DNA of 64,000 bases from contig JAPLWQ010000002.1 of the NCBI GenBank assembly GCA_026396515.1, forward strand, positions 9,075 through 73,074. Reading direction: 5' to 3'. The notes under the pieces are model-generated. The model was not told the DNA's origin. It did no database searches and saw nothing but the letters and a program-made list of their open reading frames with translations. This document shows, in pieces, positions 2,577-51,812 of the stretch. A program made the position numbers and the translations under genes. Each line of letters opens with the position of its first letter. Position 1 is the stretch's first letter. The DNA is from Candidatus Magasanikiibacteriota bacterium (GTDB lineage: Bacteria > Patescibacteriota > Patescibacteriia > Magasanikbacterales > GWA2-37-8).

Positions 2577-3395
2577 TCAATCCATGCGCCAAGGAAAAGC
2601 GGTCTGGCCGATATCTCGGTTCTCGGCGCAAAGTTCGAGTGACAACTCCACATGGTCTTTATCCCAACCAAGAAGAGGCACTCGCTTGGGCCACGGTTCA
2701 TTCTCACCCAGATTGGCTGTATAGCCGTGAAGCCAAACGAACGGAACTTCACTACCATCCATGGCCACAAGCCAATTAGGAAAATGCGCCGCCGCCGACA
2801 TTATCGCGGCGTGAGGCGACTCCTCGGCACTCCGAACATTAACCGGCTTTGCGCCGATGTGACGCGGAGAAAAATCGATGGTTTCCCAGCGCAGACAAAC
2901 ACCCGGATGGCGTGCGCCCGGAAGCAATGAGGGAAGTCCCTTATCATTTCTATACGCGTGAATGTTCTTCTCGCGCATATTGCGGGCGATCACTTCCCAG
3001 AGAGACTGGTAAGTCCCTTGCACGGTTTCGAGATAAACCACCAGCACCACGGCCGACAACTTCTTTGACGGCCATTTTGGCGGGTCGTGGTTGAATGCCG
3101 AAAATACCGATTCAGGAATCTTCCAGAAAAAGCGCTCATTCCACTCGAGCACATTAACAAACTGATTAGTCGGACTGACGAAATATTCTGAATTGAAATT
3201 CAGCATCTGCGGAGGCAAGGTGATCCGGTCGTGCTGAGCGACAAACTGCCCCTCAGCAATGCTGCGCAGATTTTTTATGATCCGCACAGCCTCTTCCGAA
3301 TCCGCCCTCATCAACTGATCCTGAATCTCCGCTGTCAGCGAATTGAAATCCCTCAATAACGAGGGGTCTACGCGATGGACCTCGGAACTTCCCAT
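2577..3395 (-). CDS. hypothetical protein
   Basis: 272-aa ORF with locally elevated GC (~50%). Strong SD (GAGGGAGGGGAAG) immediately 5' of the ATG. No recognisable motif. Confidence 0.4.
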   Translation of the reverse strand: MGSSEVHRVDPSLLRDFNSLTAEIQDQLMRADSEEAVRIIKNLRSIAEGQFVAQHDRITLPPQMLNFNSEYFVSPTNQFVNVLEWNERFFWKIPESVFSAFNHDPPKWPSKKLSAVVLVVYLETVQGTYQSLWEVIARNMREKNIHAYRNDKGLPSLLPGARHPGVCLRWETIDFSPRHIGAKPVNVRSAEESPHAAIMSAAAHFPNWLVAMDGSEVPFVWLHGYTANLGENEPWPKRVPLLGWDKDHVELSLELCAENRDIGQTAFPWRMD

Positions 3396-4928: not shown

Positions 4929-5504
4929 TTACGGCGCTTCTTCTGGGCCATATTTAACCGGGTTTAATATTGTTTTCAATAATTTGAGGGCTCGGGATTG
5001 GCGCTGCCGGACAGCATCCTCTCTTATTCCAATCTGCTCGCTGATTTCTCTGGCGGAAAATCCGTTAAAATATTTTAAAATGATAATTTCCTGGTCATCC
5101 TCATTCAATTTGTCTAAAGCTCGCCTCACATAAACCGACATTTCCAAACTCTCAACTATTTCTATTTGGCCCGCACTTTTATCGGGTATGTTTTGCCATG
5201 CGTCTTCATCATCGTCAAGGCGGATGGTTTTTTTCTTGCGCCAGTAATCAATCAGCGAATTTCTGGCCACTGTAAAAAAATATTTTAAAGGCGTGGCAGT
5301 CGCTTCCAGGCGGTCTTTAGCTTCATATACTTTAAGAAAAACCGTCTGTGCCAAATCATTGGCCTGATCTTTGTCTCGCAACCGGCCATAGAGATAACGG
5401 AAAACCGGGGTGTAGTATTCATCATAAAGCAAAGCAAATGCTTGGGAATCGCCTTCTTTTGCCCGAAGTATTAATTCTCGCGGATCACTACCGTTTTTAA
5501 GCAT
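4929..5504 (-). CDS. RNA polymerase sigma-70 factor, ECF subfamily
   Basis: 191 aa. Region 2 (DLAQTVFLKVYEA ... YFFTVARNSLIDYWRK) and region 4 HTH (LKYFNGFSAREISEQIGIREDAVRQRQSRALKLL). Confidence 0.8.
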   Translation of the reverse strand: MLKNGSDPRELILRAKEGDSQAFALLYDEYYTPVFRYLYGRLRDKDQANDLAQTVFLKVYEAKDRLEATATPLKYFFTVARNSLIDYWRKKKTIRLDDDEDAWQNIPDKSAGQIEIVESLEMSVYVRRALDKLNEDDQEIIILKYFNGFSAREISEQIGIREDAVRQRQSRALKLLKTILNPVKYGPEEAP

Positions 5505-5566
5505 ATCTAAGATAGATAACGAAAAAAAGCGCTATTTGTGACAAGGCCGCTAAATTAGCCATTTTT

Positions 5567-6631
5567 TTATGGCTGTAAAATATCTTCAGTCCGGCCGTCA
5601 ACAGAAATGATTACTGATTTGACGGTTGAAAATTGTTTAAGTGTTTCTTCTATTTGCGCTCTGATAGCCCCTACCCGGCAAGAACCGCCGAGGGCTTCTT
5701 CTATTTTCTTGTCAAAATCAACTTTTGCCACGTTATTTTCAATGGTCAGGCTTTGAATACCAACACCCATGTTTATGTTCGATAAATAACCGGCGGACTT
5801 TTCACTCTCGGTCGGACCTTTGAGCAACTCTTCTATCGCCGCGCGCCCTACCGCCGGTGTACTGGTTATAATGCGCTCAACAGCGTAAACCTTGCTGCAA
5901 TCAAGCATATTCGGATCTTTAACGGTATTATTGAAAAAAACACTTACCGTCTGGCCGAACACAATCGGATATATTTCTGATTTATCATTTTCCCTAAGAT
6001 CAGACGGATTATCATTTTTTAATACAAGCGTGCCGGTGGCTGTTTCCGGCGCATCAAATTTCAACACGGCTTCAAACGGTACGCTATTTGTGGTCATCCA
6101 CTCGCCTTTTGCCTGAGCCGGTGCAATAGCAACCTGCTTGCCGTTTGCATCATATATTTCCACGCGAGCGGTCGCTTCAAAATACCATGAGCCCGGCATT
6201 GTGCCATTTATTGTGAGAGATCCAAGAATCGGTTCTTTGAGCGTAGGAGACATTATGCTGGTTTCACGCGGTGTTTCACCTCCAACCGGACACTCGCCGC
6301 GAAACATCGCCCATTCTTCACATTGTTTACCGTCGGGGAATATGCACATTCCATATTCGCCCCCGTTTGCATCCTTTTTTATTTCAAGGTTTCCACCTTT
6401 TTCATCACAATTTACAGACGCCGGATTTGCCATACCGACATTATTTTGTTCTGTCGATGTCGCCCGCAACTCACAACCGGTTGTCGGCATTGCCGCGCTG
6501 GGATTGCCGTGCTTGACCCAAGCTCCATTTTGACAAAGCCAAGTATCTTCCGGGGTGGAAAACCTTAGGACCAAAAAAATAACGCCGACGAAAACGATTG
6601 CAGCCACCAGACCTGCTAATACTTTTGCCAT
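5567..6631 (-). CDS. membrane-anchored DUF333/GerMN-domain protein
   Basis: 354 aa. N-terminal TM. DUF333-like Cys motif (NPASVNCDEKGG ... GMCIFPDGKQCEEW). C-terminal GerMN-like domain. Confidence 0.5.
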   Translation of the reverse strand: MAKVLAGLVAAIVFVGVIFLVLRFSTPEDTWLCQNGAWVKHGNPSAAMPTTGCELRATSTEQNNVGMANPASVNCDEKGGNLEIKKDANGGEYGMCIFPDGKQCEEWAMFRGECPVGGETPRETSIMSPTLKEPILGSLTINGTMPGSWYFEATARVEIYDANGKQVAIAPAQAKGEWMTTNSVPFEAVLKFDAPETATGTLVLKNDNPSDLRENDKSEIYPIVFGQTVSVFFNNTVKDPNMLDCSKVYAVERIITSTPAVGRAAIEELLKGPTESEKSAGYLSNINMGVGIQSLTIENNVAKVDFDKKIEEALGGSCRVGAIRAQIEETLKQFSTVKSVIISVDGRTEDILQP

Positions 6632-6933
6632 ATATTATTATTAAAATTTGAACTGTCATCCTGAACGAAGCGAAGGATCTCTTCAAAGTTTTATGAAAGA
6701 TTCTTCATCCGCCAGCCGGCGGGACTCAGAATAACAATTGTTATTATAGCCATCGACCTGAAAAATGGCAAATATTGAAGACATCCGCACTCAAGCCACG
6801 CTACAACAAAAAATGTCACCCGAAGGCGGCATCTATATATGATATTTCTGTCCCAAATACAGGCCCTTTTTCCAAAAAACACTCGAGGTTATTTTTTACT
6901 CAATAACGAGGAGCCTCACGGGAAGTAAAGTCT

Positions 6934-28017: not shown

Positions 28018-29478
28018 ATGGATCACGGCAACGTCATCGTTCGCTTTGACGAAACATCATTCAGTTACGGACATAACAAGCCCATATTGGAGACGGCCAG
28101 TTTTTCAGTGCGCGAAAACGCTAAAATCACTATAATGGGCCAGAATGGCGCCGGTAAAAGCACTATTTTCAAACTGATTACCGGAGAACTAAAACCAAAT
28201 GAGGGCGGGGTGCACACCGGCGTTAAAGCGACCATCGCGATTGCCACTCAGGTAATGAAACAGGAAAATCTTGATAAAACCATTGAATCATTTTTTTCCG
28301 GCGCTTTTACTGAAAAAAAATATGATCTGCCAAAACGCATAAAAAATGTTTTGGATGTGGTTAATCTGGCCGCTCCGCTCGACCGCAAGATTAGGCAATT
28401 TTCCGGCGGACAGCAAGCTCGTCTGATTCTCGCCTATGCGCTTATTCAGGAACCGGATATTTTACTGCTCGATGAACCGACCAACAATCTCGACGCGCAA
28501 GGCATCGCCCATCTCACCCAATTTTTAATTGAATACCCGAAAACTTGTCTGGTCATTTCGCACGATGCCACGTTTTTAAATTCTTTCACGCACGGCGTGC
28601 TATATCTTGATTCCTACACCCATAAAGTCGAACAGTACCTGGGCGACTATTATGATGTGCTCGGAAAAATCGAAGCCCAGATTGAACGCGAGCGCATGAA
28701 AAATGCTCAGCTTAAAAAAAGCATCCAGGACCGCAAAGACAAAATAAACTTCTTTGCCCACAAAGGCGGAAAAATGCGCAAACTGGCCAGCAAACTCAAA
28801 GGTCAGGTGGAAGAAGCCGAAGAAGAAATGGTTGATGTGAGGAAAGAAGATAAAACTATCAATGATTTTATTCTGCCTGCTCAAACGGATGTCATCGGCT
28901 CAATTGTTAAAATTAAATCTGTCGGCATTATGGTCGGCCACGAACCGGTGCGCAAGGAAATTAAGCCGGCTATTAGCGTCCGCAAAAAGCAACGCTTGCT
29001 TATCAAAGGCCCAAACGGAATTGGGAAGAGTACTTTTCTGGCCGCGATAGCTGAAGGACGCGAAGCCGGAGCGGTTATTTCAAAAGACGTGCGCGTTGGC
29101 TATTATCGGCAAGATTTTTCAGGACTTAATTTTGAAAAAACGGCTTATCAAACGCTCGAAGAGACAATGGCTGAACCATGGAACCAAGAAATCTATGCCA
29201 CCGCCGCTCAATTTTTACTCTCCGCTGAAACTCTAAGGAATACGGTTGGCTCATTATCCGAGGGGCAAAAAGGGTTACTCTGTTATGCCCGTTTTGTATT
29301 GCAAAAACCCGGCCTTCTGATAATGGACGAACCGACCAACCATATAAACTTTCGCCACCTTCCGATTATTGCCAAAGCTTTGAATGAATTTGAAGGAGCA
29401 ATTATTCTCGTTAGCCACGCTTACGAATTTGTCGAACAGATAAAAATTGATCAAACTCTTGATTTGGGAGCGTTATAG
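28018..29478 (+). CDS. ABC-F family ATPase (tandem ABC domains, no TMD)
   Basis: Two full NBDs: Walker A GQNGAGKST and GPNGIGKST, signatures LSGGQQARL and LSEGQKGLL, Walker B LLLDEPTNNLD and LIMDEPTNHI. Start taken at MDHGNVIV; the track's 27979 start is a TTG inside the promoter. Confidence 0.8.
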   Translation: MDHGNVIVRFDETSFSYGHNKPILETASFSVRENAKITIMGQNGAGKSTIFKLITGELKPNEGGVHTGVKATIAIATQVMKQENLDKTIESFFSGAFTEKKYDLPKRIKNVLDVVNLAAPLDRKIRQFSGGQQARLILAYALIQEPDILLLDEPTNNLDAQGIAHLTQFLIEYPKTCLVISHDATFLNSFTHGVLYLDSYTHKVEQYLGDYYDVLGKIEAQIERERMKNAQLKKSIQDRKDKINFFAHKGGKMRKLASKLKGQVEEAEEEMVDVRKEDKTINDFILPAQTDVIGSIVKIKSVGIMVGHEPVRKEIKPAISVRKKQRLLIKGPNGIGKSTFLAAIAEGREAGAVISKDVRVGYYRQDFSGLNFEKTAYQTLEETMAEPWNQEIYATAAQFLLSAETLRNTVGSLSEGQKGLLCYARFVLQKPGLLIMDEPTNHINFRHLPIIAKALNEFEGAIILVSHAYEFVEQIKIDQTLDLGAL

Positions 29479-29492
29479 ATCATTTAAATATT

Positions 29493-29520
29493 AAAAACGA
29501 GCACGTGTGCTCGTTTTTTT
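29493..29520 (+). terminator. rho-independent terminator of the ABC-F gene
   Basis: AAAAACGAGCACGTGTGCTCGTTTTTTT: perfect 8-bp GC-containing stem followed by T7. Confidence 0.65.
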
Positions 29521-29523
29521 AGA

Positions 29524-29787
29524 GCGGAAGGGGTGGGCGCTCCGGCGTTCAAACCCACCACGCGAGCCAAATTATTGGCTCGCTCTTTACACTCACTTCA
29601 TTCGCGGAAGGGGTGGGATTTGGCTTCGTCTCTCGCTTGCTTCCGCTCGCTCGGACTAGCCACCGCCTCGCGGTCGCGCTCGCCCGCCTGCGTCGCGCGA
29701 CATCGCTCCGGCGTTCAAACCCACCACGCGAGCCAAATTATTGGCTCGCTCCTTACACTCACTTCATTCGCGGAAGGGGTGGGATTT
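29524..29787. repeat. tandem partial duplications of the tRNA-Ser 3' end and its flank
   Basis: An ~82-nt unit occurs at about 29541-29622 and again at 29706-29787, where it is fused to the intact tRNA. The unit is TCCGGCGTTCAAACCCACCACGCGAGCCAAATTATTGGCTCGCTCYTTACACTCACTTCATTCGCGGAAGGGGTGGGATTTG. A third copy of the terminal GCGGAAGGGGTGGG lies at 29524-29537. The copies are separated by a 78-nt segment of about 68% GC. Confidence 0.6.
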
Positions 29788-29861
29788 GAACCCACGGTCC
29801 GGTTTAGAGCCGAACGACACGTTAGCACCGTGTTGCTTTAGACCAGCTCAGCCACCCTTCC
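29771..29861 (-). tRNA. tRNA-Ser (anticodon GCU), type II with long variable arm
   Basis: Minus-strand sequence GGAAGGGTGGCTGAGCTGGTCTAAAGCAACACGGTGCTAACGTGTCGTTCGGCTCTAAACCGGACCGTGGGTTCAAATCCCACCCCTTCCG. It folds as 7-bp acceptor, 3-bp D-stem, anticodon stem ACACG/CGTGT with loop GUGCUAA (U33, GCU, A37), 6-bp variable arm, T-arm GTGGG-TTCAAAT-CCCAC, discriminator G. CCA is not encoded. Confidence 0.8.
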
Positions 29862-29981
29862 AATGTTTACCCTGTAAATTTGTGCTATAATTATAGCAAT
29901 AAATTGGCCGAAAGTCAACCCTGTTAAACGCCCTTCGGGCTATTCACCACCGGCGAATTATCTAACAGGTAAAGAAATACT

Positions 29982-31571
29982 ATGCTTCAAAAAATCGCAA
30001 AAATTGCCTTAATCCTTGCCGGATATTTCCTGGTTATTTCATTTGTTTCCAATACTTTTGACGGCGATTTCGGCTGGCACTTACGTTTCGGCCGCGATGC
30101 TTTTGCCGGCAATTTTCAATATTTAGACACCTATACATGGCCTCACTTCGGACTGTCATGGACAAACCACGAGTGGGGCGGAGATTTGTTGTTCTGGCTG
30201 TTATATTCGTCTTTCGGCTATTTTTCTCTGGTGCTTCTAATCTCAGCCGCAATATGGGGTGCATTTTTGCTGGCGCAAAAAATATTTTTTAAAAAAATCA
30301 GCATCAGCGGAATAATACTTTCTCTTGCCGGCATTGCCTGCCTAAAATTTTTATTGGGTCTTCGTCTGGCATTCTTAGTATTAATGCTGTTTACGCTTCT
30401 CTGGCTAACTTTGGAAAAGTTGCCGAAAATAAAATCATATTTTCTTTGGCCGCCGCTTCTGTGGCTATGGTCGGCTCTCCATGGCAGCTGGGCACTCGGT
30501 TTTATTATTATCAATATATATACATTCGGCAATATTATATATTTAATGATAAAAAATAAATTTCCCCGCTTGGCCGGCAAAGACACGGGTTGGACCGGTA
30601 AAACCATTCTCGCTTCATTTTTCTGGCAGGCAATCTCGGCGCTGTTTCTGCTCTTCAATCCCTATGGCACAAAAATATGGACAGAGGTCGGCGAATATTT
30701 TACATCCGGATATTTTAAAACAATAATTACCGAGTGGATTCCGAGCTATGCCTATCCTGTCTATGTTTGGCCGCTTATTATCGCGGCATTTACCGCGGTA
30801 TTCGCCGTCTGGGGCTGGCTTACTAAAAAGGTAACATTAGCGCAATTGCTTTTTTTCTTCGCCATTTTTTATTCTGCCTGGCAATACAAACGCAACAATG
30901 TCTATCTTGTACTAATCTGCATACCGGCGCTGACTATAATATTTGGCTTGGCAAAAGAAAAAATTATTTCCGCATTTAACTTAAAAACGACAGTGCAGGA
31001 AAGAATAGCGCTTGTTTCCGCGGCACTAGCAATAATGCTAATTGCGCTATTCGCGCCTTCAGTCAGAATAAATAGCGACATCTGGAAAGACCGCGAACTA
31101 TTATTGCGCTATCCATTTCCATACGATGCGGTTGAATTTCTGACCAAAGAAACAGTTGGCCGGCAAATTTATCTGTTTAATGAATTTCATTGGGGTGGAT
31201 ACTTGAACTGGACGATGCCTGATACCCTCATATATTTTGACGGGCGCGGCACGGCCACCTGGAAATACAGCAATGATGAAACACGCCTGGAGCGGTACAG
31301 AAAAATAAAGTACCAGGCCGGCGGTTTTAATGAGCTCGAACAGGGTCCGGCAGAATATGTGATACTTAGCCAATATTATGCCAGCTACAAAAAACCGAAT
31401 ATGATTAACAAAATTATTTTCGGAGAAAAAGGCATTGCCGAAGCGTTGGTGCCGGATCCGCCTCAATTGGAAAAAATGCTGAGAAAAAGCGGAAGCTGGC
31501 AGATAATTTTCGAGGATAAAATCGCGATTGTTTGGAAAAGAGTCAATAAAACCTCACCCACTACCAAATAA
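29982..31571 (+). CDS. polytopic membrane protein, GT-C-like putative glycosyltransferase
   Basis: 529 aa. About 12 TM helices in the first ~350 aa, then a soluble C-terminal domain. Aromatic-rich loops (HEWGGDLLFW). Confidence 0.4.
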   Translation: MLQKIAKIALILAGYFLVISFVSNTFDGDFGWHLRFGRDAFAGNFQYLDTYTWPHFGLSWTNHEWGGDLLFWLLYSSFGYFSLVLLISAAIWGAFLLAQKIFFKKISISGIILSLAGIACLKFLLGLRLAFLVLMLFTLLWLTLEKLPKIKSYFLWPPLLWLWSALHGSWALGFIIINIYTFGNIIYLMIKNKFPRLAGKDTGWTGKTILASFFWQAISALFLLFNPYGTKIWTEVGEYFTSGYFKTIITEWIPSYAYPVYVWPLIIAAFTAVFAVWGWLTKKVTLAQLLFFFAIFYSAWQYKRNNVYLVLICIPALTIIFGLAKEKIISAFNLKTTVQERIALVSAALAIMLIALFAPSVRINSDIWKDRELLLRYPFPYDAVEFLTKETVGRQIYLFNEFHWGGYLNWTMPDTLIYFDGRGTATWKYSNDETRLERYRKIKYQAGGFNELEQGPAEYVILSQYYASYKKPNMINKIIFGEKGIAEALVPDPPQLEKMLRKSGSWQIIFEDKIAIVWKRVNKTSPTTK

Positions 31572-31906: not shown

Positions 31907-32608
31907 TCAAATAGCTCTGGCCAAAGTAATCGCCCAAACTGTTTTTGAGCCACCGATTTTCAGCACTTTGGCACACTCATTTAATGTCGCGCCGGTAGTA
32001 TAGACATCATCAACTAAAATAACGGAATTAGGCACTGCGTCGCTTTTTACAGCAAAAGCGCCGTCCACATTTATTTCCCTTTCTTCTTTTGTCAGTTTTG
32101 CCTGTTGAGCGGTGGCGCGCAGCCGTGACAGGATACTATCATTAACTTCATACTTTCTTTGCGGAAAGATTTTTTTTATTTCCTGATAAATTATATCCGC
32201 CAATATTTTGGCTTGGTTAAATCCCCTCTCTCTTTCACGGCGGGGGAAAAGCGGTACGGGCAAGATCACACCTTCTTCAGGAATAGGAATACCCGATAAA
32301 TACCGCCCGATCAGCATTTGCCAGACCGATTGAATGTCATGCGCGTATTTATATTTAAAATCGCGTATCAATTTCGCTGACGGCTCGGCCTCCGTATAAC
32401 TCATTAAAGCCGAGACGCCGTCTAAATTGAAAAATCCGCGGCAGCCAAGGCAAAGCTCACCGCTGTTTTGTTTTCCACAGCCCGGACATCTTAGCACCGG
32501 AGATATTTTTTGTTTTTCAAAACACTTTTCACACCACCAGACGCCTTCTTTTCCGCATTCGGCGCAATAAACCGGAAATAGAATATCTTTAACCAGCTTT
32601 ATTATCAT
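31907..32608 (-). CDS. comF: ComF family protein (phosphoribosyltransferase-domain competence protein)
   Basis: N-terminal 4-Cys zinc finger (CAECGK ... CEKC ... CPGCGK ... CLGC) and C-terminal PRTase motif VILVDDVYTTGATL. Start taken at MIIKLVKD (32606-32608), just after the upstream terminator hairpin. Confidence 0.7.
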   Translation of the reverse strand: MIIKLVKDILFPVYCAECGKEGVWWCEKCFEKQKISPVLRCPGCGKQNSGELCLGCRGFFNLDGVSALMSYTEAEPSAKLIRDFKYKYAHDIQSVWQMLIGRYLSGIPIPEEGVILPVPLFPRRERERGFNQAKILADIIYQEIKKIFPQRKYEVNDSILSRLRATAQQAKLTKEEREINVDGAFAVKSDAVPNSVILVDDVYTTGATLNECAKVLKIGGSKTVWAITLARAI

Positions 32609-32612
32609 ATTA

Positions 32613-32640
32613 CAAAGACGCCCTTGCGGGCGTCTTAAAA
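32613..32640 (-). terminator. terminator hairpin at the end of the T4SS-like operon
   Basis: AAGACGCCCTTGCGGGCGTCTT: perfect 9-bp stem, loop TTGC. Followed on the minus-strand RNA by UUUGUAAUAU. Sits between the stop at 32652 and the comF ATG. Confidence 0.5.
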
Positions 32641-32651
32641 AATCATTTATG

Positions 32652-33248
32652 CTATTTAACCCATTCAAATTTATCCACTAGCCAAATGCCTTTTGTTTCC
32701 ACCAGCCAAACCTTTGCCTTTTCATTCGTTTGCGTTGTGCTTGAACCCTTGGTAGTTATTCGCTGGGCAGACACTTCTACCATGGCTTTTCCGCTGGCGT
32801 ATTCAACGACATCAGACGCCACCGCATTGGTGGTTACACCGAGAAACACCGCCGGTTTGCCTGTGCCAATCTTTTTTTCAAGTTCAGACCAATAACTCAT
32901 TGTCACCAATGTCTCCACTTCGCGGATATTAGCAAAATCACTATCCGAAGAATATGTGCCATAGCGCTCGGTGAATATTTTTGCCATTTGCTTCGCCCCG
33001 TTTTTTAGCGCTTCTTCCGTAGTAAGCGGTTTCACCGGTATTCCAGTCGGTACGACAACCGGCGGCGGGGTGATCTGTACAGGAAAATTAGTTGAATCAA
33101 TCTGACCGGTCTGGTCTTCAGCCGGCGGCTGTTCAACCGGCGGCGCCGCTTTTTGGCGGACAAAAACAATAATACCGACGCTGATTCCCAGTATAATCAA
33201 AACAATCAAACTGATAAAAATAAACAGACGGGAGCGAAGTGTGGTCAT
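32652..33248 (-). CDS. bitopic membrane protein, possible VirB8-like T4SS component
   Basis: 198 aa. N-terminal TM, Pro-rich linker, about 110-aa globular C-terminal domain. The VirB8-like assignment rests on architecture and operon context only. Confidence 0.3.
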   Translation of the reverse strand: MTTLRSRLFIFISLIVLIILGISVGIIVFVRQKAAPPVEQPPAEDQTGQIDSTNFPVQITPPPVVVPTGIPVKPLTTEEALKNGAKQMAKIFTERYGTYSSDSDFANIREVETLVTMSYWSELEKKIGTGKPAVFLGVTTNAVASDVVEYASGKAMVEVSAQRITTKGSSTTQTNEKAKVWLVETKGIWLVDKFEWVK

Positions 33249-33289
33249 ATGTTTTCAAATATTTATGCTGCCGGTCCGCGCCGGCGCCA

Positions 33290-35158
33290 TTATTTATTTT
33301 CTGCAACAAATTCTTTTTTTGCTTTTTCAATGGCCAGAAGCTGTTCGGGGTTGGTAGTGACTATCTGATCTTCGGTATATGATGCCACCACTTTAATGGC
33401 GGCGTGTTTCCGGCCGGCAAAAAATATTCCTTCGCCTACTCCGGACTCAAGCAACAAATATTTTTCACTATCGGTCAATACAAATACTTTCTGAATCAGA
33501 TCAATAGACGCCGGCGACTGACGCAATAATAATTGCAGGGCCGAGTTGGTGACGATCGCCTGCCCATATTGCGATTTCAAAAAGTCGTTCACATCCTGAG
33601 TGATAGTGGTAACGCCGAGATAATATTTACGGCAGCGTTTCACCAGAGCATAAATGAAACGCGCCGAATCTTCGTGCATCATCAGCCACCAGGCCTCGTC
33701 GATCACCAATATTCTTTTCTTGCGCTCCGAGCGCACCACATTCCAAATATAGTTCACAATGGTATATATGGCAATCGGCCGAAGTTCATCTTCCAAATCC
33801 CGCACCGAATAAATGACCAGCTGATTTTTCATATCAACATTGGTCGGCGAGTTGAACAAGCCGCTGAAAGTGCCTTCAGTATATTTTTGCAATTTTAAGA
33901 CAAGCTCTTCCGACCCTTGCATTCCCTCCAATATCTCCACCAAATCCTGCATAATCGGCGGCTTAACCGTGGCCAAATCGGCATCGGGCGTAATATCCTT
34001 CTTGGCGTAGGTTTCAATCAATGCACGGTCAATAATAGCGTCTTGTTCAACGGTCAGACCGCCAAGCATGATGCGCAGGAGCCCTTTCACAGTAATAACC
34101 GCTCCGCGGATCACGTCTTCGGTGGATATTTCCATACCCATCGGCCGGGGCAGATCAAATGGATTAATTTTAGCTTCTGATGAAAGAGAAATGTTAACAT
34201 AAGTACCGCCGACAGCGTCGCTTAAATGCTTATATTCCATTTCCGGGTCGATAACAATCACATCCACGCCCATCATCATGGTACGCAGAATTTCCAGCTT
34301 AATGGCATAACTTTTCCCGGCGCCGGAAGTGGCGAACACCACCATATTGGCGTTTTGCAGGGAAAACCGTTCAAATAAAATCAAGCTGTTGTTGTGGCGG
34401 TTAATGCCGTAAAGTATGCCGTCATCAGATGTCAGCTCGGCGGATATAAAAGGAAACGACGCGGCAATCGGAGAGCTGTTCATGTTGAAGGCAACATACA
34501 ATTCATCATTACATAAAGGCAAAGTGGAATTATAGCCCTGCTCTGATTGATACAAAACCTTTCGGGTCATAATCAGCTTGCCGCCGAAAATATTTTCAAT
34601 ATCCTCGGTGGTCTGGTCCAATTCTTCTTTTTTTCGCGCATAAATTGTGGCGTAAAAACAGAATTGAAAAAAATGTTCGGTGCCCTGCGTTAAATTATCC
34701 CGCAATTGCTCAATATCGCGCAAAGCTGTTTCGCGGATCGGATCGCGCGGTGCGCCTTTTTCCGTATCGGCATTAATCTGCGCTTCCAAGGCGCCGACTT
34801 TATTTTTTAATTGTTTTAAAATGACGGCTGATTTTACCGGATAGAAAAACATGGCCAAATCCATGGTGACGGAAAGATTGATAACGGGCGAGGCCCAGCC
34901 GATGGAAATGTAGCGCGGATAGGCGGTGATAAAAAGCGTGCGGCAAAAAGCATCACCAAGCTGAACAAAACTTGACTCCACGCGAAAAGCGGAAGGCGCC
35001 ACCAAATCGCGGATGGACACCACGCCTTCACGATATATTTTTTCCTCTTCAAGCGTCACCAGCTCTTCAGATGCTTTTCTCTTAAGCTCACTGGTTTCGG
35101 TCTGCAGGCGGCTGGTGGCCTGTTTTTGTTCTTTAATCGCCGATGGTTTAAATGCCAT
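33290..35158 (-). CDS. virB4: VirB4/TrbE/CagE-family type IV secretion ATPase (C-terminal 622-aa part)
   Basis: Walker A FATSGAGKSYAI, Walker B RILVIDEAWWLM, and VirB4-type N-proximal block (LGDAFCRTLFITAYPRYISIGW). Confidence 0.75.
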   Translation of the reverse strand: MAFKPSAIKEQKQATSRLQTETSELKRKASEELVTLEEEKIYREGVVSIRDLVAPSAFRVESSFVQLGDAFCRTLFITAYPRYISIGWASPVINLSVTMDLAMFFYPVKSAVILKQLKNKVGALEAQINADTEKGAPRDPIRETALRDIEQLRDNLTQGTEHFFQFCFYATIYARKKEELDQTTEDIENIFGGKLIMTRKVLYQSEQGYNSTLPLCNDELYVAFNMNSSPIAASFPFISAELTSDDGILYGINRHNNSLILFERFSLQNANMVVFATSGAGKSYAIKLEILRTMMMGVDVIVIDPEMEYKHLSDAVGGTYVNISLSSEAKINPFDLPRPMGMEISTEDVIRGAVITVKGLLRIMLGGLTVEQDAIIDRALIETYAKKDITPDADLATVKPPIMQDLVEILEGMQGSEELVLKLQKYTEGTFSGLFNSPTNVDMKNQLVIYSVRDLEDELRPIAIYTIVNYIWNVVRSERKKRILVIDEAWWLMMHEDSARFIYALVKRCRKYYLGVTTITQDVNDFLKSQYGQAIVTNSALQLLLRQSPASIDLIQKVFVLTDSEKYLLLESGVGEGIFFAGRKHAAIKVVASYTEDQIVTTNPEQLLAIEKAKKEFVAENK

Positions 35159-35162
35159 ATTT

Positions 35163-35849
35163 TTAAGCGTTTTCCGCGTTTAATGTTTCAAGCGGAGCGA
35201 GCGGTTCTGACAAAGCGATATCCGGATTATAGGTGGTATAAAATAATTCAATCAGCGACTGCGTGTCCAGCCGCACCACTTCCAAACCCATACTGGTCAG
35301 GCCAGATTCAATCTGGCGCACGCGCATATCCAGATCATATTTTCTTTTCATAAACCTTTCTTCTTTCAGACGCACTGTGATTGCCGGATTGATAACTTCC
35401 GAAGCGCGCGACCAAAAACCGCGCTTTTTATTTGATAACGGGTCATACGGCACAATCACATAGAACAGTTTGCTCATAATCTTCCCCAAACTGACCAATT
35501 CGGAAACAAATGAGCGGTAGTCGGCAATCTGCATCCTTAATAATTCATTCGGTTGTTCGCGCTCTTTCCTCGCCAATTTTTCCAAATACGGTTTAACATT
35601 CAGCTGACGGGATTGAATAACAATCTGTAAAGGATGGTCTAAACCGTTTAAAAAAGATACATATGAAAAAACAATGGCTTGCTGTTCGTCCTCATTTTTA
35701 AGCGAAAAATTAATACTGGATACCATAAGCACAGACCGCAGGGTGCCGTCTTTCATCACAACGGTATCGTTCTTAATTTCGGCGATAGACAAATTTTTTT
35801 GCGTGGTTGGAATCGCCGCCCGTTTATTTGATGCTTTTTTATTTTTCAT
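35163..35849 (-). CDS. VirB4 N-terminal domain encoded as a separate 228-aa ORF (split or frameshifted virB4)
   Basis: IAEIKNDTVVMKDGTLRSVLMVSSINFSLKNEDEQQAIVFSYVSFLNGLDHPLQIVIQSRQ resembles the extreme N-terminal CagE/TrbE/VirB4 block. Its stop lies 4 nt from the ATG of 33290..35158, in a different frame, at an A5 run. Confidence 0.45.
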   Translation of the reverse strand: MKNKKASNKRAAIPTTQKNLSIAEIKNDTVVMKDGTLRSVLMVSSINFSLKNEDEQQAIVFSYVSFLNGLDHPLQIVIQSRQLNVKPYLEKLARKEREQPNELLRMQIADYRSFVSELVSLGKIMSKLFYVIVPYDPLSNKKRGFWSRASEVINPAITVRLKEERFMKRKYDLDMRVRQIESGLTSMGLEVVRLDTQSLIELFYTTYNPDIALSEPLAPLETLNAENA

Positions 35850-35869
35850 ACGTTCATTAAAACACTAAA

Positions 35870-36334
35870 CTAATCTTCTGCCTGATAATAACCGCCTGTA
35901 TTAACTGTTAAAGACAGATCGCGAATCCGGCTGTATGAAAGGCGCGGAATCGGTTTCGCCGCTTCCGGAATCGTTACCACGCCCTCGGCCTGAAGGCGCT
36001 TTATTTCGCCGGTGTTATAAATTTTATTCCAAATGCGCAAAGCCGGCCGGCGCAGCGTCTGTACTATGTTTAATAAAAAATAGTGGAATGCCTGCCCGTT
36101 GATTTTTACAAAGGCGATGATGAGCGAACCGCCTCCGATTACGGCGGTTAAAAAAATGAATAAAGCAAAATCGGCCAATTTGAAGGTGACAAATAATACC
36201 AGGCCGGCCACCAGCAAAATAACAAACTGCCGGGCGGTAATCGGACCGAATATTTTATCCTCCACATCAATAAATTGCGGGACAACAAATTGCGTTTGCA
36301 TAGCTATATTACAACAATTCTTTTTCCATCTCAA
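35870..36334 (-). CDS. small two-TM membrane protein, VirB3/PrgI-like candidate
   Basis: 154 aa with two hydrophobic helices, positioned directly upstream of virB4 as VirB3 homologues usually are. Confidence 0.35.
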   Translation of the reverse strand: MRWKKNCCNIAMQTQFVVPQFIDVEDKIFGPITARQFVILLVAGLVLFVTFKLADFALFIFLTAVIGGGSLIIAFVKINGQAFHYFLLNIVQTLRRPALRIWNKIYNTGEIKRLQAEGVVTIPEAAKPIPRLSYSRIRDLSLTVNTGGYYQAED

Positions 36335-49400: not shown

Positions 49401-51812
49401 TGATGCGGGAATAATATATGACAGTGGGTTTGCATTTGAATAATTGCTCGCCACTTCCTGATAGGCGGCATAGCCCACGCATTTGGCGTCGCACTGGTCG
49501 TTCCAGGTTACTTGACCGCCGGCCACCACTGCCGGCGTGAATTTGCCCGGTATTATTTCTTGCGTGAGAGCAGAGGTATATAAATTGCAGTTTTCTTCTT
49601 CAGGCAGACAGACCTGCGCATAATCATTGCATTTTCCCGCGTCTGCCGGGCGCAGTAAATTTAAGTCCGCGAGATTTTTCGGCCAACTGACGCCGTCAAT
49701 TAAACGCGCAAATGTCTGAATATATTTATTTGGTAAAGTGGTGGCGTCGGCATCATAGCAAAAAAGATAATTCGGCGCTTTTTTAAGATAGATTAATGTT
49801 TCAGAATCAGATGCCACTTTGAAAGCGCTGCAACCGTCATCGGTTGTCTTACAAGTTGTGGCTTTTTTGTTAAACGAAATGCTGGTGTTGGTGAAACTAT
49901 TTGACGAGGTGCTGATCACGGGCAAATACCAATCAGTGGTTGTGGGGGTAAAATAGTGCCTCGCGGTTATATAGTGGGTGCAACCATCATTTTCGGCATT
50001 GCATTGTTCAGTATCGAGCGTGCGGGTTAAATACCCTATTGTGTCGCCCGCTGAATTGGTAAACGCCCGGCAAGTGTTATATTGCGCGTCGCAATAATCG
50101 GCCTTGAATTTCCAAATCGGCTTCTCTCTTAAACAATACCCCCAGCTTGAGCAAGAACCATCTTTATTAAAACCAACGCAATGCTGAATGTCAGCGCAGG
50201 TTTGTAAACGCACGCCATCAGCGGAGATGGCACTATAGACAAACGATTTGCACCGCATCTTTGGAAGTTTGATCACCCAGTGCGGGTTGATAAGATGATA
50301 ATAAAGAGAACCCTCAGTGTAGTAGTTATCAACAACCTCTTTCAGAGTTACTGGGTTTTCTTGCGGCGAGCTATAGGCGGCAATTTCAAAACCAAGCGGC
50401 AAGACGCGCGCTAATCGCAAATAGCGGATATTGCGATGACAGTACGCCGATTGCGAACAGTCAAATTTTTGATTATTGGCAGCGTCTGATTCGGGAATCA
50501 ATTTCCAATCACCGTGCAAAAACCCGCGCTCCATCGCCTGTTTGATAGTGAACGGTTCGCCGGTGTTGGCTTGCTGGAGAATCTGCATGAATGACTGGTC
50601 AACAATGCAGGCCTCAGGCGACAAATTGTCTTCCGAGCATTCAGCCATGTTCGGAGAAATATCATAATTATCCAAAGTTGTAATTTTCGGTTTTAGCAGT
50701 TCGCTGAACATTTCCTGAGCCGCGCGGCGGTTGCCGGTGCCGGCGCTGCCGGATGAATAGTAACTCGTTGCCATGCTTTCGGCAGAATTATCATCTTCGC
50801 ATTGATCCCAACCAACGCCGGAAATGCTTAAACCCGGGTTACACACCTTCGCGCCACCCGGCAGCATACCTTTGGTAATAAAGTTATTAATGACCGTACC
50901 AAGCAAAGTATTTACAAAAGTGCTGACTGTGTTTAGAGCCAGGCTGGCGCCTCCTTTTTCCAAAGCTGCAGCCGTCATTGTCAATTGACTCGCCTTTTCT
51001 TCTCTTGTTTTATTTGCTGCCGATTGTGCGGTAAATTCTTCACGCATTACAGTGGCCGGAGCGATATTCTTGCGTGAAATAATTTCAGTCATAGCAAAAA
51101 TGCCGCTGCCTTCTTCACGGTCAAGCTGGGCACCGGCTGTTGTTTCGGCGGCCATAGTATCCATTTTTTCTTTTCCGGAAAACCAAACGCCAAAATCACT
51201 GTCTTCTACCTGCACACCCATACCAAGACGGCTGGTTAACCCTTCCACTGAAGCATATTTGCTCCGAATATTTTCAACATTATATGCGCTCTTCAGTTGC
51301 TGCCAAGTACAACGTGGTGTGGGCGGGCCGTAATTAAAATGGAAGCCAAGCTTTAACATCAAATCAAGTCGCAGGTCGGGCAAATTACACAAATCTAGGC
51401 CGAGATCCTCGCTTAGAGTGGCAAGCGCTTCACCAAGCGCGTCGCCGGCTGTTTGCGCCAGGTAATTGCCAAAACTCTCTTGGCTGGCAAACGGGCCTTG
51501 ACCAAAATCGCCGGCAGCCAAATACACGGCCATGTCATAAGCGATTTTATTTGTAAAATAGTTCAAGCCGTTCATTATGGCAGACATTACCATCAAGAGG
51601 CCTTCGGTTTTGATTTTTTCTAACAGCGTTTTTTCCTTTTCACCGGCTGTTTGTTGAAGAGTCCAAGGTTTAAAATAACCAGCCCATCCCACATAATCAT
51701 GATATTGCGCTTTAGCAGGTGTTGGATAAAGCAATATTAAGCCAAAAATAAAAGTGAAGACAATGCTTGCAAGCACTGCTCCCAGTCCGAATTTTTTAGA
51801 TTTGGAAATCAT
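43461..51812 (-). CDS. giant cysteine-rich secreted/surface protein
   Basis: 2,783 aa (about 8.35 kb). N-terminal signal/anchor (LGAVLASIVFTFIFGLILLYPTPAKA). Hundreds of Cys in repeated CxxC/C...C patterns. A segment resembling a carbohydrate-binding beta-sandwich (ISNWSGSAGSVSVATS ... ILSFWAKGN). Starts 7 nt after the upstream gene; TAG stop. Confidence 0.6.
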   Translation of the reverse strand: MISKSKKFGLGAVLASIVFTFIFGLILLYPTPAKAQYHDYVGWAGYFKPWTLQQTAGEKEKTLLEKIKTEGLLMVMSAIMNGLNYFTNKIAYDMAVYLAAGDFGQGPFASQESFGNYLAQTAGDALGEALATLSEDLGLDLCNLPDLRLDLMLKLGFHFNYGPPTPRCTWQQLKSAYNVENIRSKYASVEGLTSRLGMGVQVEDSDFGVWFSGKEKMDTMAAETTAGAQLDREEGSGIFAMTEIISRKNIAPATVMREEFTAQSAANKTREEKASQLTMTAAALEKGGASLALNTVSTFVNTLLGTVINNFITKGMLPGGAKVCNPGLSISGVGWDQCEDDNSAESMATSYYSSGSAGTGNRRAAQEMFSELLKPKITTLDNYDISPNMAECSEDNLSPEACIVDQSFMQILQQANTGEPFTIKQAMERGFLHGDWKLIPESDAANNQKFDCSQSAYCHRNIRYLRLARVLPLGFEIAAYSSPQENPVTLKEVVDNYYTEGSLYYHLINPHWVIKLPKMRCKSFVYSAISADGVRLQTCADIQHCVGFNKDGSCSSWGYCLREKPIWKFKADYCDAQYNTCRAFTNSAGDTIGYLTRTLDTEQCNAENDGCTHYITARHYFTPTTTDWYLPVISTSSNSFTNTSISFNKKATTCKTTDDGCSAFKVASDSETLIYLKKAPNYLFCYDADATTLPNKYIQTFARLIDGVSWPKNLADLNLLRPADAGKCNDYAQVCLPEEENCNLYTSALTQEIIPGKFTPAVVAGGQVTWNDQCDAKCVGYAAYQEVASNYSNANPLSYIIPASGKSCGAADAGCSAFTNLTTDQGGLEQTEYFSYLRLCMLPDANKQKNFYVYESSETSGYQLKTYTFEKDASGGPKQIFHDTNELALYESEASPCNSISYLAGTANPDCHQFNDDSTNTYYAMLSKTVIVSDQCTPYRLNSPELVSGFSPTDLRCPYDFEPTSVGKRAGDAIELKENSCYYMGFTGNTNGAGDAQSCTKEAESCRAYKGNAGNNVRSLASDSFESTISNWSGSAGSVSVATSTESTQLGGHSLKISANVSSGGKVAIRTGFNIQQDKSYILSFWAKGNLSLDDIQIGEESGEASAYFSGPVTVSDVWRYYSFGPVEYNGPANTGKLRFLISLTGGETKLMYIDNVNLKEVTDYIYLVKNSLSVDPICDSNLSDNLPGEALSCMAYVDPAKNTYYLTNFSYLCREEAVGCTALLDTQNTPEQPLASAYNVWLKGESGTVAEITIEGTKFSCQVPVGKDGCYTNILGINDLENLYDLQGSDITLTNSTIIIPPDTPTTSPIYLVASKDVTCKAENMGCQVLGKGKFSPSGNTFTTAFGSATHYEVFEDTAVKNDPALYDTSLCRAEEIGCKSWKSGESVYYFKDPVQNGKLICKYVEPSAISYTTPAFNFPNPFGGPDIVIPEMEHNFSFGGWVWKDVGICTGGGKLCMSDSDCGEGKTCLFKNQVPCASDYSSATDGYGLWSNGNVGKYKGFVGECPVEQNGCTEFVDHSSATDEKKCALSGKKCENNSDCSEESEEDICIVNSANAYYLLDNTNLSEQMSLCNGQVSAAEGCVLIDNTNQPTKMYNTALTNQESLDKKEALVNPVASSTANDANIIIKVIHDRVCGEWAYCDLKQEFEDEETGEASSRCFHLGVCNKAGAVDAVAGKVVKDCAETVPLWTTKGQILSAALYRSVFNAWNSLDFSGYSTYGFYQVPDLTARKVGDTFRMVYVNTQYSFYGGGGSGTECIKPTATDNHNGDSCGTTAYSGHCYNGECLRSWAGYYPEYSSSLGCRAYSEMMSPFPYYVFKDSNADMLEFKDGFEDVNVCKTNNGNQTQLCEAECGYRKIKTDGAEVYEPISRPIEGNYICSTGLKAGLYCSGPESTGCGEGNSCSTIKSFQILNGWMGYCMERDETYRINGTNTANCMTWWPLESPPGVPNSWDQDPKAGYQINEGKKDRFMCLNNLPPTDLHHFGTVFTPKSHNGAAYDATLSMPKNNSYYMFLPDTIYDYEHNVINPEGDDDWVALYGLDDNTWVTGCYDNNGGTDWEVNQPTSGFTSSADLNLFKFDMPGGKKSHGMFCPLNASTLAYDTDVKFYCDYTLIDDATGRTICGTTEGGVLYHSGFSQFQDTRPAYVGKNLFSSGHPTYLNRREIERIDVHFDENSYMPKSKGWVSFISDMTDADEGERYFVSEENWAMNGGDSSYHSVELESTCEGKQYKAWEWKSWAGDSTPQWANSNKNKLITNGVCTDQFREEQLEVEDEDQGISVRVVWDDQYNLRGIWMNFENQVNTDAHTIGFFFVIHFTNGACKKYAQVSDTGADENNGKMYFKPFTNRLASGASLTLGTDGTGNDLSSRQRVRTPTLNESNYGLMEADPIAEDLNAVFINPFTVADQYHTVFSQAGSDEYSYAASKYGVFEAGVPLTVVDNMMDSICDTDCQSKISYTQSTIEGSATKPIASMLRTMFAKVYEFDKLADGSASDGGFDGYAKNAGDGKSGSYDAANPTRAAEISLNIYPPRVAAPSADSWVLDKISVDGKIGGNIYLMSGSQAHIKFYAWAHGNQMPIRRIVVDKGDSFGDTQIDSLISDSLGNRKFACSEKICDDTDEGSQFPCNSDGDCDPANTYYTCGDTSSDIKKFGNTDDTGCKAKPWDFVTDFNCPFGSMGIVESSSTGYVDIGFESSIPISSLGIDWAYIRQNFYGAEYVCVAHPRVYVLDNWGWCAGSCDYSSNTHVKGPGCYSEAGSGSTNQCDKTLSEPWVNYDGYVIVVPLPQ

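Follow-up and report, generated by a model that had tools for sequence, protein, structure and literature searches.

Why should the 3′ end of a tRNA gene recur twice immediately downstream of that gene? This question is raised by tRNA-Ser(GCU), which lies at 29861..29770 on the minus strand of a 64-kb stretch of contig JAPLWQ010000002.1 from a Candidatus Magasanikiibacteriota bacterium (the window, by which we mean the whole stretch analysed) and is the sole tRNA found there (ARAGORN; Rfam RF00005, 54.2 bits). An original prediction had taken the copies for possible remnants of integrase-mediated insertion and excision at the tRNA gene. We favour a different answer, to which we assign a probability of roughly 55%: the locus would consist of tRNA-Ser(GCU) and two modules of the type known from Escherichia coli as tRNA-linked repeats (TLRs), that is, structured RNAs that mimic the end of the tRNA, are co-transcribed with it, are released by 3′-processing and are patchily gained and lost.

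Two repeat units directly follow the tRNA-Ser(GCU) gene

A repeat search identified an 85-nt direct repeat (29538-29622 and 29704-29788) whose copies start 166 nt apart and are identical at 84 positions, the sole mismatch being a T at 29586 versus a C at 29752. The duplication of the tRNA 3′ end together with its flank, as originally predicted, was thereby confirmed, with slightly different proportions: each 85-nt block is made up of 19 nt of tRNA 3′ end and 66 nt of 3′ flank, rather than about 22 and 60 nt. The predicted third copy of the tRNA terminus is present as an exact 14-nt match at 29524-29537, so that a 14-mer of the tRNA end has three exact copies (0.27 expected at up to 2 mismatches; 0/100 shuffles reach 4). 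A perfect hairpin had also been noted in the repeated flank; it has a 9-bp stem and occurs twice in the window, and no copy of the 22-nt hairpin was detected beyond 29728-29749 and 29562-29583 when up to 3 mismatches were allowed. The segment between the 85-nt copies, previously estimated at about 68% GC, reaches 71.6% over its 81 nt (29623-29703). The array can be described as two adjacent units, U1 and U2, the components of which are listed in Table 1.

The predicted promoter upstream of the tRNA matches 11/12 consensus positions in addition to its TG extension and is the only promoter-like site in 29400-30000, and a consensus scan flagged no terminator-like site between the tRNA and the units. 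Because of this upstream promoter and the lack of anything terminator-like in between, the tRNA, U1 and U2 look like a single transcription unit. Right after the third tRNA-end copy comes the inverted repeat at 29493-29518, and a convergent ABC-F gene stops at 29478; we read the inverted repeat as a putative shared terminator for the tRNA-U1-U2 transcript and the ABC-F gene, which the consensus scan missed. An additional ~8 kb of the same genome past the left edge of the window contained no tRNA and no unit. A 102-aa open reading frame (ORF) with a GTG start (29533-29841, plus strand), which runs antisense across the repeats and the tRNA, is almost certainly spurious.

Table 1. Features of the tRNA-Ser(GCU) locus, in window positions.
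Feature	Position	Strand	Description
Predicted sigma-70-type promoter	29890..29918	-	TTGACT, 17-nt spacer, TG-TATAAT; ~28 nt 5′ of the tRNA
tRNA-Ser(GCU)	29770..29861	-	ends ...CCCTTCC-G-C, then GAATG; encoded CCA absent
A	29788..29770	-	final 19 nt of the tRNA; CAAATCCCACCCCTTCCGC in tRNA sense
B	29769..29704	-	66 nt of tRNA 3′ flank
C (GC-rich domain)	29703..29623	-	81 nt, 71.6% GC; window 41.9%
A′	29622..29604	-	exact 19-nt direct copy of the tRNA end, T-loop to discriminator plus 1; 3′ end of U1
B′	29603..29538	-	66 nt; differs from B at one base
A″	29537..29524	-	exact 14-nt copy of the tRNA end; closes the array
U1 = B+C+A′	29604..29769	-	166 nt; begins at the base right after the tRNA 3′ end; in order: left arm, hairpin H, right arm, GC-rich domain, 19-nt tRNA 3′ copy
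Left arm of U1	29751..29756	-	GTAAGG; degenerate complement of the acceptor 3′ strand
Hairpin H of U1	29728..29749	-	GCGAGCCAA-TAAT-TTGGCTCGC, 9 bp
Right arm of U1	29713..29725	-	GGTGGGTTTGAAC
U2 = B′+A″	29524..29603	-	80 nt; directly 3′ of U1; equals U1 minus domain C; left arm, hairpin H (29562-29583), right arm (29547-29559), 14-nt tRNA 3′ copy (29524-29537)
Inverted repeat, putative terminator	29493..29518	both	perfect 12-bp arms, T-runs on either side

Homologous units follow four tRNA species

The comparison of occupied and empty sites among relatives, suggested by the original prediction, proved informative. Orthologous tRNA-Ser(GCU) loci were reached via homologues of the flanking 529-aa membrane protein, the nearest of which is 63% identical. 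Four of these loci (L003, L017, L022 and L025) carry no unit, L015 carries one and the window carries two. L015 belongs to a distant relative (flanking protein 48% identical), and its unit aligns over the full length of B+C+A′ with 77.5% identity, the two tRNA-Ser genes themselves being 76.3% identical. Since this alignment is full-length and includes identical stretches of 21 and 24 nt within the GC-rich segment, the latter represents a conserved element. In unit-less L022, the tRNA-Ser is followed by a different, ~70-nt GC-rich trailer (2700-2775, minus strand; TTCGGTCCGCCGTAGCGGACC...GCGTAGGCGAC) with neither a tRNA-end copy nor the family hairpin.

Scanning metagenomes with the 20-nt hairpin core yielded eight loci. 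The core lies 12-25 nt past the 3′ end of tRNA-Ser(GCU) in L009, of tRNA-Ser(UGA) in L013 (L011 is the same sequence) and of tRNA-Pro(UGG) in L014. The hairpin-only matches in L006, L007, L008, L010 and L012 were dismissed as chance, there being no tRNA at these sites; in L006 and the identical L008/L010/L012, T-runs follow the hairpin as in ordinary terminators. The single match of the 22-nt hairpin in genome contigs is an unrelated Clostridia terminator. L013 bears two units in tandem, and in L009 two full units and one older remnant are set apart by four tRNA-end copies that are progressively degenerate. From the 5′ module of the units we built a covariance model (R1), which recovered all eight input units at 65-80 bits, including U2 at 67 bits, and added a ninth at 24.7 bits after tRNA-Gly(GCC) on L014. 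This contig, which also bears the tRNA-Pro unit, is the only one on which units occur at several tRNA loci within one organism. Homologous units are hence found behind four tRNA species (Ser(GCU), Ser(UGA), Pro and Gly) in four other metagenomic organisms. When R1 was run over the 64-kb window and ~165 kb of other loci (~230 kb in all), no copy was detected away from tRNA genes.

Upstream of tRNA-Gly on L014 (1550-1695, minus strand) we also observed the hairpins TGCGAGTA-AGTAA-TACTCGC and TGCGAGTA-AGTAG-TACTCGC, which consist of tRNA-Gly acceptor strands only and look like units from which everything between the arms has been deleted, comparable to the shortened U2. In L015 (2385-2412) and L014 (~1430-1477, minus strand), a terminator-like hairpin flanked by A- and T-runs lies between tRNA and unit, an arrangement that recalls the ‘terminator 1, TLR, terminator 2’ layout of E. 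coli rrnB (PMC8144298).

The arms of the units are complementary to the end of the neighbouring tRNA

The units share a general plan in which a left and a right arm frame the conserved 9-bp hairpin and the tRNA 3′ end is usually repeated directly, while a GC-rich two-hairpin domain is an optional part of some units. Read as reverse complements, the left arm matches the upstream tRNA's acceptor 3′ strand (degenerately in the window and in the L014-Pro unit) and the right arm matches its T-loop and T-stem 3′ strand. The 5′ module as a whole thus corresponds to the final ~20 nt of the tRNA in reverse complement, interrupted by the hairpin exactly at the acceptor/T-stem junction; in most units a variable interior follows and then the direct tRNA 3′ copy, which extends from the T-loop to the discriminator or one base beyond.

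Since linker lengths vary, RNAalifold on trimmed constructs aligned the hairpin well but misregistered the arms, and we thus report arm pairing as exact complementary run lengths. Exact runs between arms and their own tRNA span 7-9 nt on the left and 7-12 nt on the right, and the left arms of L015, L013, L009 and L014-Gly fit their own tRNA better than any other tRNA in the set. Left and right arms read ACGGAAGAG and GAGGGATTCGAA in L013 unit 2, CGGAGAGG and GAGGGAT in L015, and TGCGAGTA and GAGAGAATCGAA in L014-Gly; L014-Pro combines a degenerate left arm with the right arm CCGGGATTCGAA. In the window, the left arm GTAAGG of U1 retains 4 contiguous complementary nucleotides, compared with the 7-9 exact ones in L015, L013, L009 and L014-Gly, and a perfect left arm for this tRNA would read GGAAGGGG. 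Apart from a 1-nt deletion, the right arm GGTGGG-TTTGAAC of U1 corresponds to GTTCAAATCCCACC, the T-loop and T-stem 3′ strand, in reverse complement.

For U1 we predicted a fold of -77.7 kcal/mol (z = -4.4), the minimum free energy structure making up 15% of the ensemble. In this fold the 5′ and 3′ ends are paired, H forms a side hairpin and two GC-rich hairpins, contributed by domain C and one of them capped by a GGAA tetraloop, are apical. The closing helix is predicted to pair GGTGGG(TTTG) with (CAAA)CCCACC of the 3′ copy in U1 and GGTGGG with CCCACC in U2. Five full units from four loci, folded singly, adopted the same shape, with paired ends, the hairpin as a side branch, the right arm paired to the 3′ copy and an apical interior. 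The topology of these predicted folds is that of the acceptor/T-arm stack of a tRNA, in which the 3′ strand is continuous and the 5′ strand interrupted.

Predicted base pairing is retained across diverged units

Among seven units, the 9 predicted pairs of hairpin H include 5 with compensatory changes and none that is broken; its stem variants are GCGAGCCAA, GCGACCAAA, GCAAGCCAA and GTAGGCAAA. When U1 was aligned with the L015 unit, 40/40 predicted pairs, most of them in domain C, were found to be retained, 4 by compensatory double changes, and the differences were concentrated in loops. In L013 unit 1, the right arm reads TGCGG instead of the tRNA-matching GAGGG, and the complementary CCGCA is present downstream within the unit, which as an apparent compensation is independent of the tRNA sequence. 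Because of the compensation in hairpin H, the pairs kept between U1 and L015, L013 unit 1 and the stability of the predicted folds, the evidence, drawn from a small sample, favours a structured RNA in the tRNA sense.

The architecture parallels that of E. coli TLRs

E. coli possesses 22 TLRs at ten loci, with 1-5 per locus (PMC8144298, citing Egan & Landy 1978, Rudd 1999), each of which closes at its 3′ end with 18-19 bp that are found identically at the 3′ terminus of the preceding tRNA or rRNA gene (PMC8144298). The three TLRs of rRNA operons are transcribed and processed and bind Hfq and CsrA, while E. coli TLRs, including the members in tRNA operons, are otherwise without known function (PMC8144298). 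At tyrT-tyrV, we found the tRNA-Tyr T-stem/acceptor in inverted form, GGGGAAGGAT, within each 178-nt repeat, and the 19-nt direct copy at the end of the repeat. Consistently, the closing helix of the Rfam RtT consensus (RF00391), GGGGAAGGA:UCCUUCCCC, is this inverted T-stem/acceptor copy paired to the direct 3′ copy.

The window shares with these elements the tandem arrangement directly 3′ of a tRNA gene (sets of 1-5 in E. coli, two here), a unit-end tRNA copy beginning in the T-loop (E. coli, 18-19 bp; U1, 19/19 nt; U2, 14/14 nt), a GC-rich interior and an inverted tRNA copy on the 5′ side that pairs with the 3′ copy, for which GGTGGG:CCCACC is the counterpart in the window. It differs in that the window family adds the conserved 9-bp hairpin, which splits the inverted copy at the acceptor/T-stem junction and so creates a separate acceptor-like arm that E. 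coli TLRs do not have. Moreover, the E. coli copies include CCA, whereas those in the window stop at the discriminator (+1) without it, and the hosts are Patescibacteria-type and other uncultured bacteria rather than Enterobacteria.

Other known RNAs show more limited likeness. Xanthomonas sX4 (RF02223) comprises tRNA-Ser and its trailer, in which a G-run is paired with the CCCCCC of the T-stem/acceptor 3′ strand across two intervening hairpins; tRNA 3′ half, hairpins and inverted arm are thus in the same order as in the 5′ module. However, the sX4 model matches at 33, 24 and 15 bits, mainly through the tRNA part, against a threshold of 70, and includes neither a direct tRNA 3′ copy nor tandem repeats. 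The tRNA-like domain of tmRNA, YrlA and mascRNA resemble the units in that their 5′ and 3′ ends form an acceptor/T-stem-like helix that could recruit tRNA-processing enzymes. In contrast to them, the units lack an intact T-loop, having the GC-rich domain or a 16-nt loop instead, and their stems copy the neighbouring tRNA and not a fixed family sequence. No tmRNA, YrlA or mascRNA match in Rfam came near its gathering score, the best being mascRNA-menRNA at 19.6 bits (L014 tRNA-Pro) and tmRNA at 9.8 bits (L015), neither of them on a unit. Rfam searches at the gathering threshold and at E<=10 returned only the tRNA and sub-threshold noise.

A model for release of the units by tRNA 3′-processing

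CCA-less tRNA precursors are cut after the discriminator by RNase Z. An encoded CCA is absent from 6/6 unit-bearing tRNAs and present in 3/4 unit-less orthologues, the fourth of which reads CCT; this contrast (CCA absent in 6/6 versus 1/4) gives p ~0.03 in a hand calculation that treats lineages which are not independent. The pattern fits release by an RNase Z-type endonuclease that cuts CCA-less precursors after the discriminator.

In the mechanism that we propose, one promoter would drive the tRNA, U1 and U2 as a single transcript ending at 29493-29518, as the layout suggests. The two arms of a module would pair with its own 3′ copy, consistent with the complementarity and the predicted folds, to form a stacked helix resembling that of acceptor and T-stem, with a continuous strand of the same sequence as in the tRNA; the hairpin would take the place of the D, anticodon and variable arms, and the T-loop would be replaced by the GC-rich domain. 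Since the tRNA and all copies end at the discriminator and are CCA-less, RNase Z would be expected to cut after the tRNA and after each unit, releasing RNAs of ~166 and ~80 nt. The array would grow and shrink through unequal recombination or slippage between the 14-19-nt copies, and U2, with 1 mismatch to U1 over 85 nt, would have arisen by recent duplication of U1 and loss of the GC-rich domain. By analogy with the three E. coli rRNA-operon TLRs, the released RNAs would most likely act as a tRNA-end decoy or as protein-binding small RNAs. Modulation of the maturation of the upstream tRNA is another possibility, since pairing of these arms with the 3′ half of the tRNA itself is also feasible.

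Several observations weigh against TLR-type modules as the explanation. With 4 contiguous pairs in U1 and fewer still in U2, the left arm in the window is degenerate, so that the tRNA-like closure is weaker here than at the other loci, and U1 and U2 could be decaying. The antisense strand of U1 also folds well (z = -3.9), somewhat less so than the sense strand, and only nine units at five loci are available. Covariation of the arms could reflect copying of the adjacent tRNA at the DNA level, or gene conversion by it, and not selection on an RNA fold, and the patchy presence at orthologous loci requires several losses or some transfer. Finally, the RtT model (gathering score 45 bits; 134-138 bits for the E. 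coli positive control) gave no match at E<=10 in window 29400-30000, L013, L014 or L015, R1 found nothing in the E. coli tyrT locus, and pairwise local alignment with RtT was marginal (z = 0.6-3.6). Having searched with models and pairwise in both directions, we reject sequence homology to E. coli RtT and retain the architectural parallel.

Integrase scars, selfish DNA and artefacts as alternative explanations

The reading closest to the original prediction is that one or more integrative elements entered the tRNA-Ser 3′ end and were later deleted, leaving attL/attR-type copies and element DNA behind. As at the attL and attR sites of tRNA-integrating prophages and islands, direct tRNA 3′ copies bound the insert, an intact tRNA lies at one end, and occupied and empty sites coexist among relatives (L003, L017, L022 and L025 being empty). 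The copies begin in the T-loop, reportedly a usual crossover sublocation for tRNA-targeting integrases (Williams 2002). Serial insertion beside the tRNA would also be expected to yield something like the four progressively degenerate copies in L009, which look older the farther they lie from the tRNA; the oldest-looking copy adjoins an ancestral-type terminator, and a 21-kb low-GC block is located on the same side of the tRNA. Nevertheless, the inserts measure merely 66-147 nt and contain no integrase or mobile-element genes. The absence of an integrase from the window, as already stated in the original prediction, was borne out by a Pfam scan of its 46 ORFs of at least 100 aa, which revealed no integrase, recombinase or transposase at E<=1e-5 (~16 of the 46 are without any Pfam match); no recombinase was found in the six ORFs surrounding the tRNA at E<=1e-3, nor among the larger ORFs scanned on L009, which encode HipA, Rho, PolA, CoaE and similar proteins. 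Viral, phage and plasmid matches were equally absent: the 20-nt hairpin core has no match in IMG/VR, two 18-20-nt pieces of the GC-rich segment gave nothing relevant there (one chance match, L021, inside a coding region), and the 246-nt array has no blastn match in phage and plasmid collections. No tRNA-end copy is present at the far edge of the low-GC block. Between the copies lies a conserved structured module, found at five loci, with arms complementary to the target tRNA and fitting four tRNA species, which is not expected of a sequence-specific integrase. Evidence that would have spoken against an integrase footprint had been named in advance, namely a unit absent from mobile-element boundaries and a tandem structure invariant among relatives; we found no mobile-element boundary carrying the unit, but the relatives do vary. 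That the tRNA 3′ end is a site of gain and loss stands, while inert integrase scars are improbable, because a decaying att scar would show neither tRNA-complementary arms nor compensatory substitutions.

The main rival is a selfish, non-autonomous DNA module whose ends are inverted tRNA 3′ copies and which spreads among tRNA trailers without any RNA function, for instance by hairpin-primed synthesis, by gene conversion between close inverted repeats or through a trans-acting recombinase that recognises the palindromic hairpin. We consider it unlikely, although a good deal of evidence is compatible with it. The same hairpin and interior follow four tRNA species, two of them on contig L014, and are patchy at orthologous loci; perfect 12/12 arm copies exist even where no recognisable 3′ partner is left (L014-Pro, L013 unit 2); U2 and the acceptor-only hairpins of L014 resemble shortened derivatives; and the 9+9 palindromic hairpin could bind a dimeric protein. 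With respect to the criteria for miniature inverted-repeat transposable elements, the unit ends are mutually inverted copies and the tRNA end is duplicated, but the ends change with the host tRNA. On the other hand, there is no transposase or recombinase nearby (window ORFs, L009 ORFs), and no dispersed copies off tRNA genes occur in the 64-kb window and ~165 kb from the other loci. Both the conserved loops of GNRA type and the divergence of U1 from L015 in loops rather than in stems are more RNA-like, and the right-arm compensation in L013 unit 1 is apparently independent of the tRNA sequence. We also know of no transposition mechanism that yields target-matched inverted ends. A self-propagating DNA element would be the more novel outcome.

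That the units are decayed tandem duplicates of tRNA-Ser is suggested by arms that equal the acceptor 5′ and T-stem 5′ strands of the tRNA and by a 3′ end that equals the tRNA 3′ end. This reading is effectively refuted, as ARAGORN and the Rfam tRNA model (to E<=10) find only the one tRNA, the right arm is the reverse complement of the T-loop and not a copy of it (in L009, GGGATTTGAA), and independent decay cannot produce the same hairpin and interior with Ser, Pro and Gly tRNAs. It is just as improbable that the tandem structure was created by reads mis-joined at shared tRNA sequence, even though short-read metagenome assemblies often break or mis-join at tRNA genes and several Logan contigs of relatives end within tRNA-Ser. 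The two 85-nt copies differ at one base, and the same tandem architecture is found in the independent assemblies L009, L013/L011 and L014. Furthermore, the independent Logan contig L001 (SRR20698649) of the same organism starts exactly at window position 29759. Logan unitigs use k = 31, and this start argues against an artefact because a break at this very point is what a k=31 unitig extended from the tRNA side would have to show if the 85-nt block has two contexts.

We also discarded three further candidates. A small peptide in the GC-rich segment was rejected since the 15-codon ATG frame in U1 is not conserved in L015, L013 or L009 and its GGAG is only 2 nt from the ATG. The template/variable repeat of a diversity-generating retroelement is contradicted by copies that differ at a single base and by the lack of a reverse transcriptase, and a primer-binding site by arms that pair with genomic sequence up to the discriminator and not with CCA.

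Implications for TLRs and for annotation

TLRs have been known in E. coli since 1978 and, to our knowledge, are still without an accepted origin. TLR architecture is now seen in very distant uncultured bacteria with reduced genomes, which turns an enterobacterial curiosity into a testable comparative question: are these processed tRNA-mimic RNAs or self-propagating DNA elements? A more speculative proposal, which we put forward only tentatively and regard as doubtful, is that TLRs constitute a phylogenetically broad class, reaching from Patescibacteria-type bacteria to Proteobacteria, whose members mimic the tRNA end, colonise tRNA trailers and acquire the local tRNA 3′ end in both orientations. 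If TLRs were indeed this broad, they would represent either a new mode of target-templated propagation in which a small element needs no dedicated recombinase, or small RNAs of a new family, freed by tRNA-processing enzymes, whose stems are obliged to match the neighbouring tRNA. Such stem-matched RNAs might, for example, compete with the tRNA for factors that mature or bind it. As for annotation, it is routine to take repeated tRNA 3′ ends as prophage or island boundaries, which would be the wrong reading here.

Genomic neighbourhood

A low-GC block of 21 kb (~6.9-27.9 kb; 35% GC versus 45% in the rest of the window) on the 3′ side of the tRNA carries cell-envelope genes. It encodes glycosyltransferases, a teichoic-acid-type glycerophosphotransferase, methyltransferases, a GT-C arabinofuranosyltransferase-like protein, a flippase and a PAS protein. 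The block separates the sigma-70/DUF333-Germane genes (4929-6631) from the tRNA, while in L015 and L022 these genes lie within 1-2 kb of the tRNA-Ser 3′ end. It looks like an exchanged cell-envelope island beside the tRNA flank, but its far edge bears no tRNA-end copy and no integrase was found among the window ORFs. The intergenic region at its left edge (6650-6680) contains the motif GTCATCCTGAACGAAGCGAAGGATC, and similar TCAGGATGACA repeats occur in L022 (~2300-2390) downstream of a GIY-YIG gene; the two may represent another small repeat family.

In four relatives, a small gene for a 23S_rRNA_IVP-family protein or a GIY-YIG nuclease adjoins tRNA-Ser (L015 2551-2982, L017 2629-2934, L022 2451-2684, L025 393-641). 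In three cases it separates the tRNA from the conserved membrane-protein gene, in L022 it is on the tRNA 3′ side, and the window has none, which points to turnover of small selfish genes around tRNA-Ser.

From 31907-36334 onward, the window encodes a ComF-like phosphoribosyltransferase, a VirB4/TraG-type ATPase (33290-35158), a 228-aa ORF (35163-35849) where L002 has its TraC-like gene, and a PrgI-family protein (35870-36334). Since this ComF/VirB4/PrgI block is syntenic in L002, L015 and L017, it appears to be core to the lineage and not a mobile element. Farther along, the minus strand is occupied from 43461 to 51812 by a single ORF of 2783 aa, whose sole Pfam match is a carbohydrate-binding CBM_4_9 domain.

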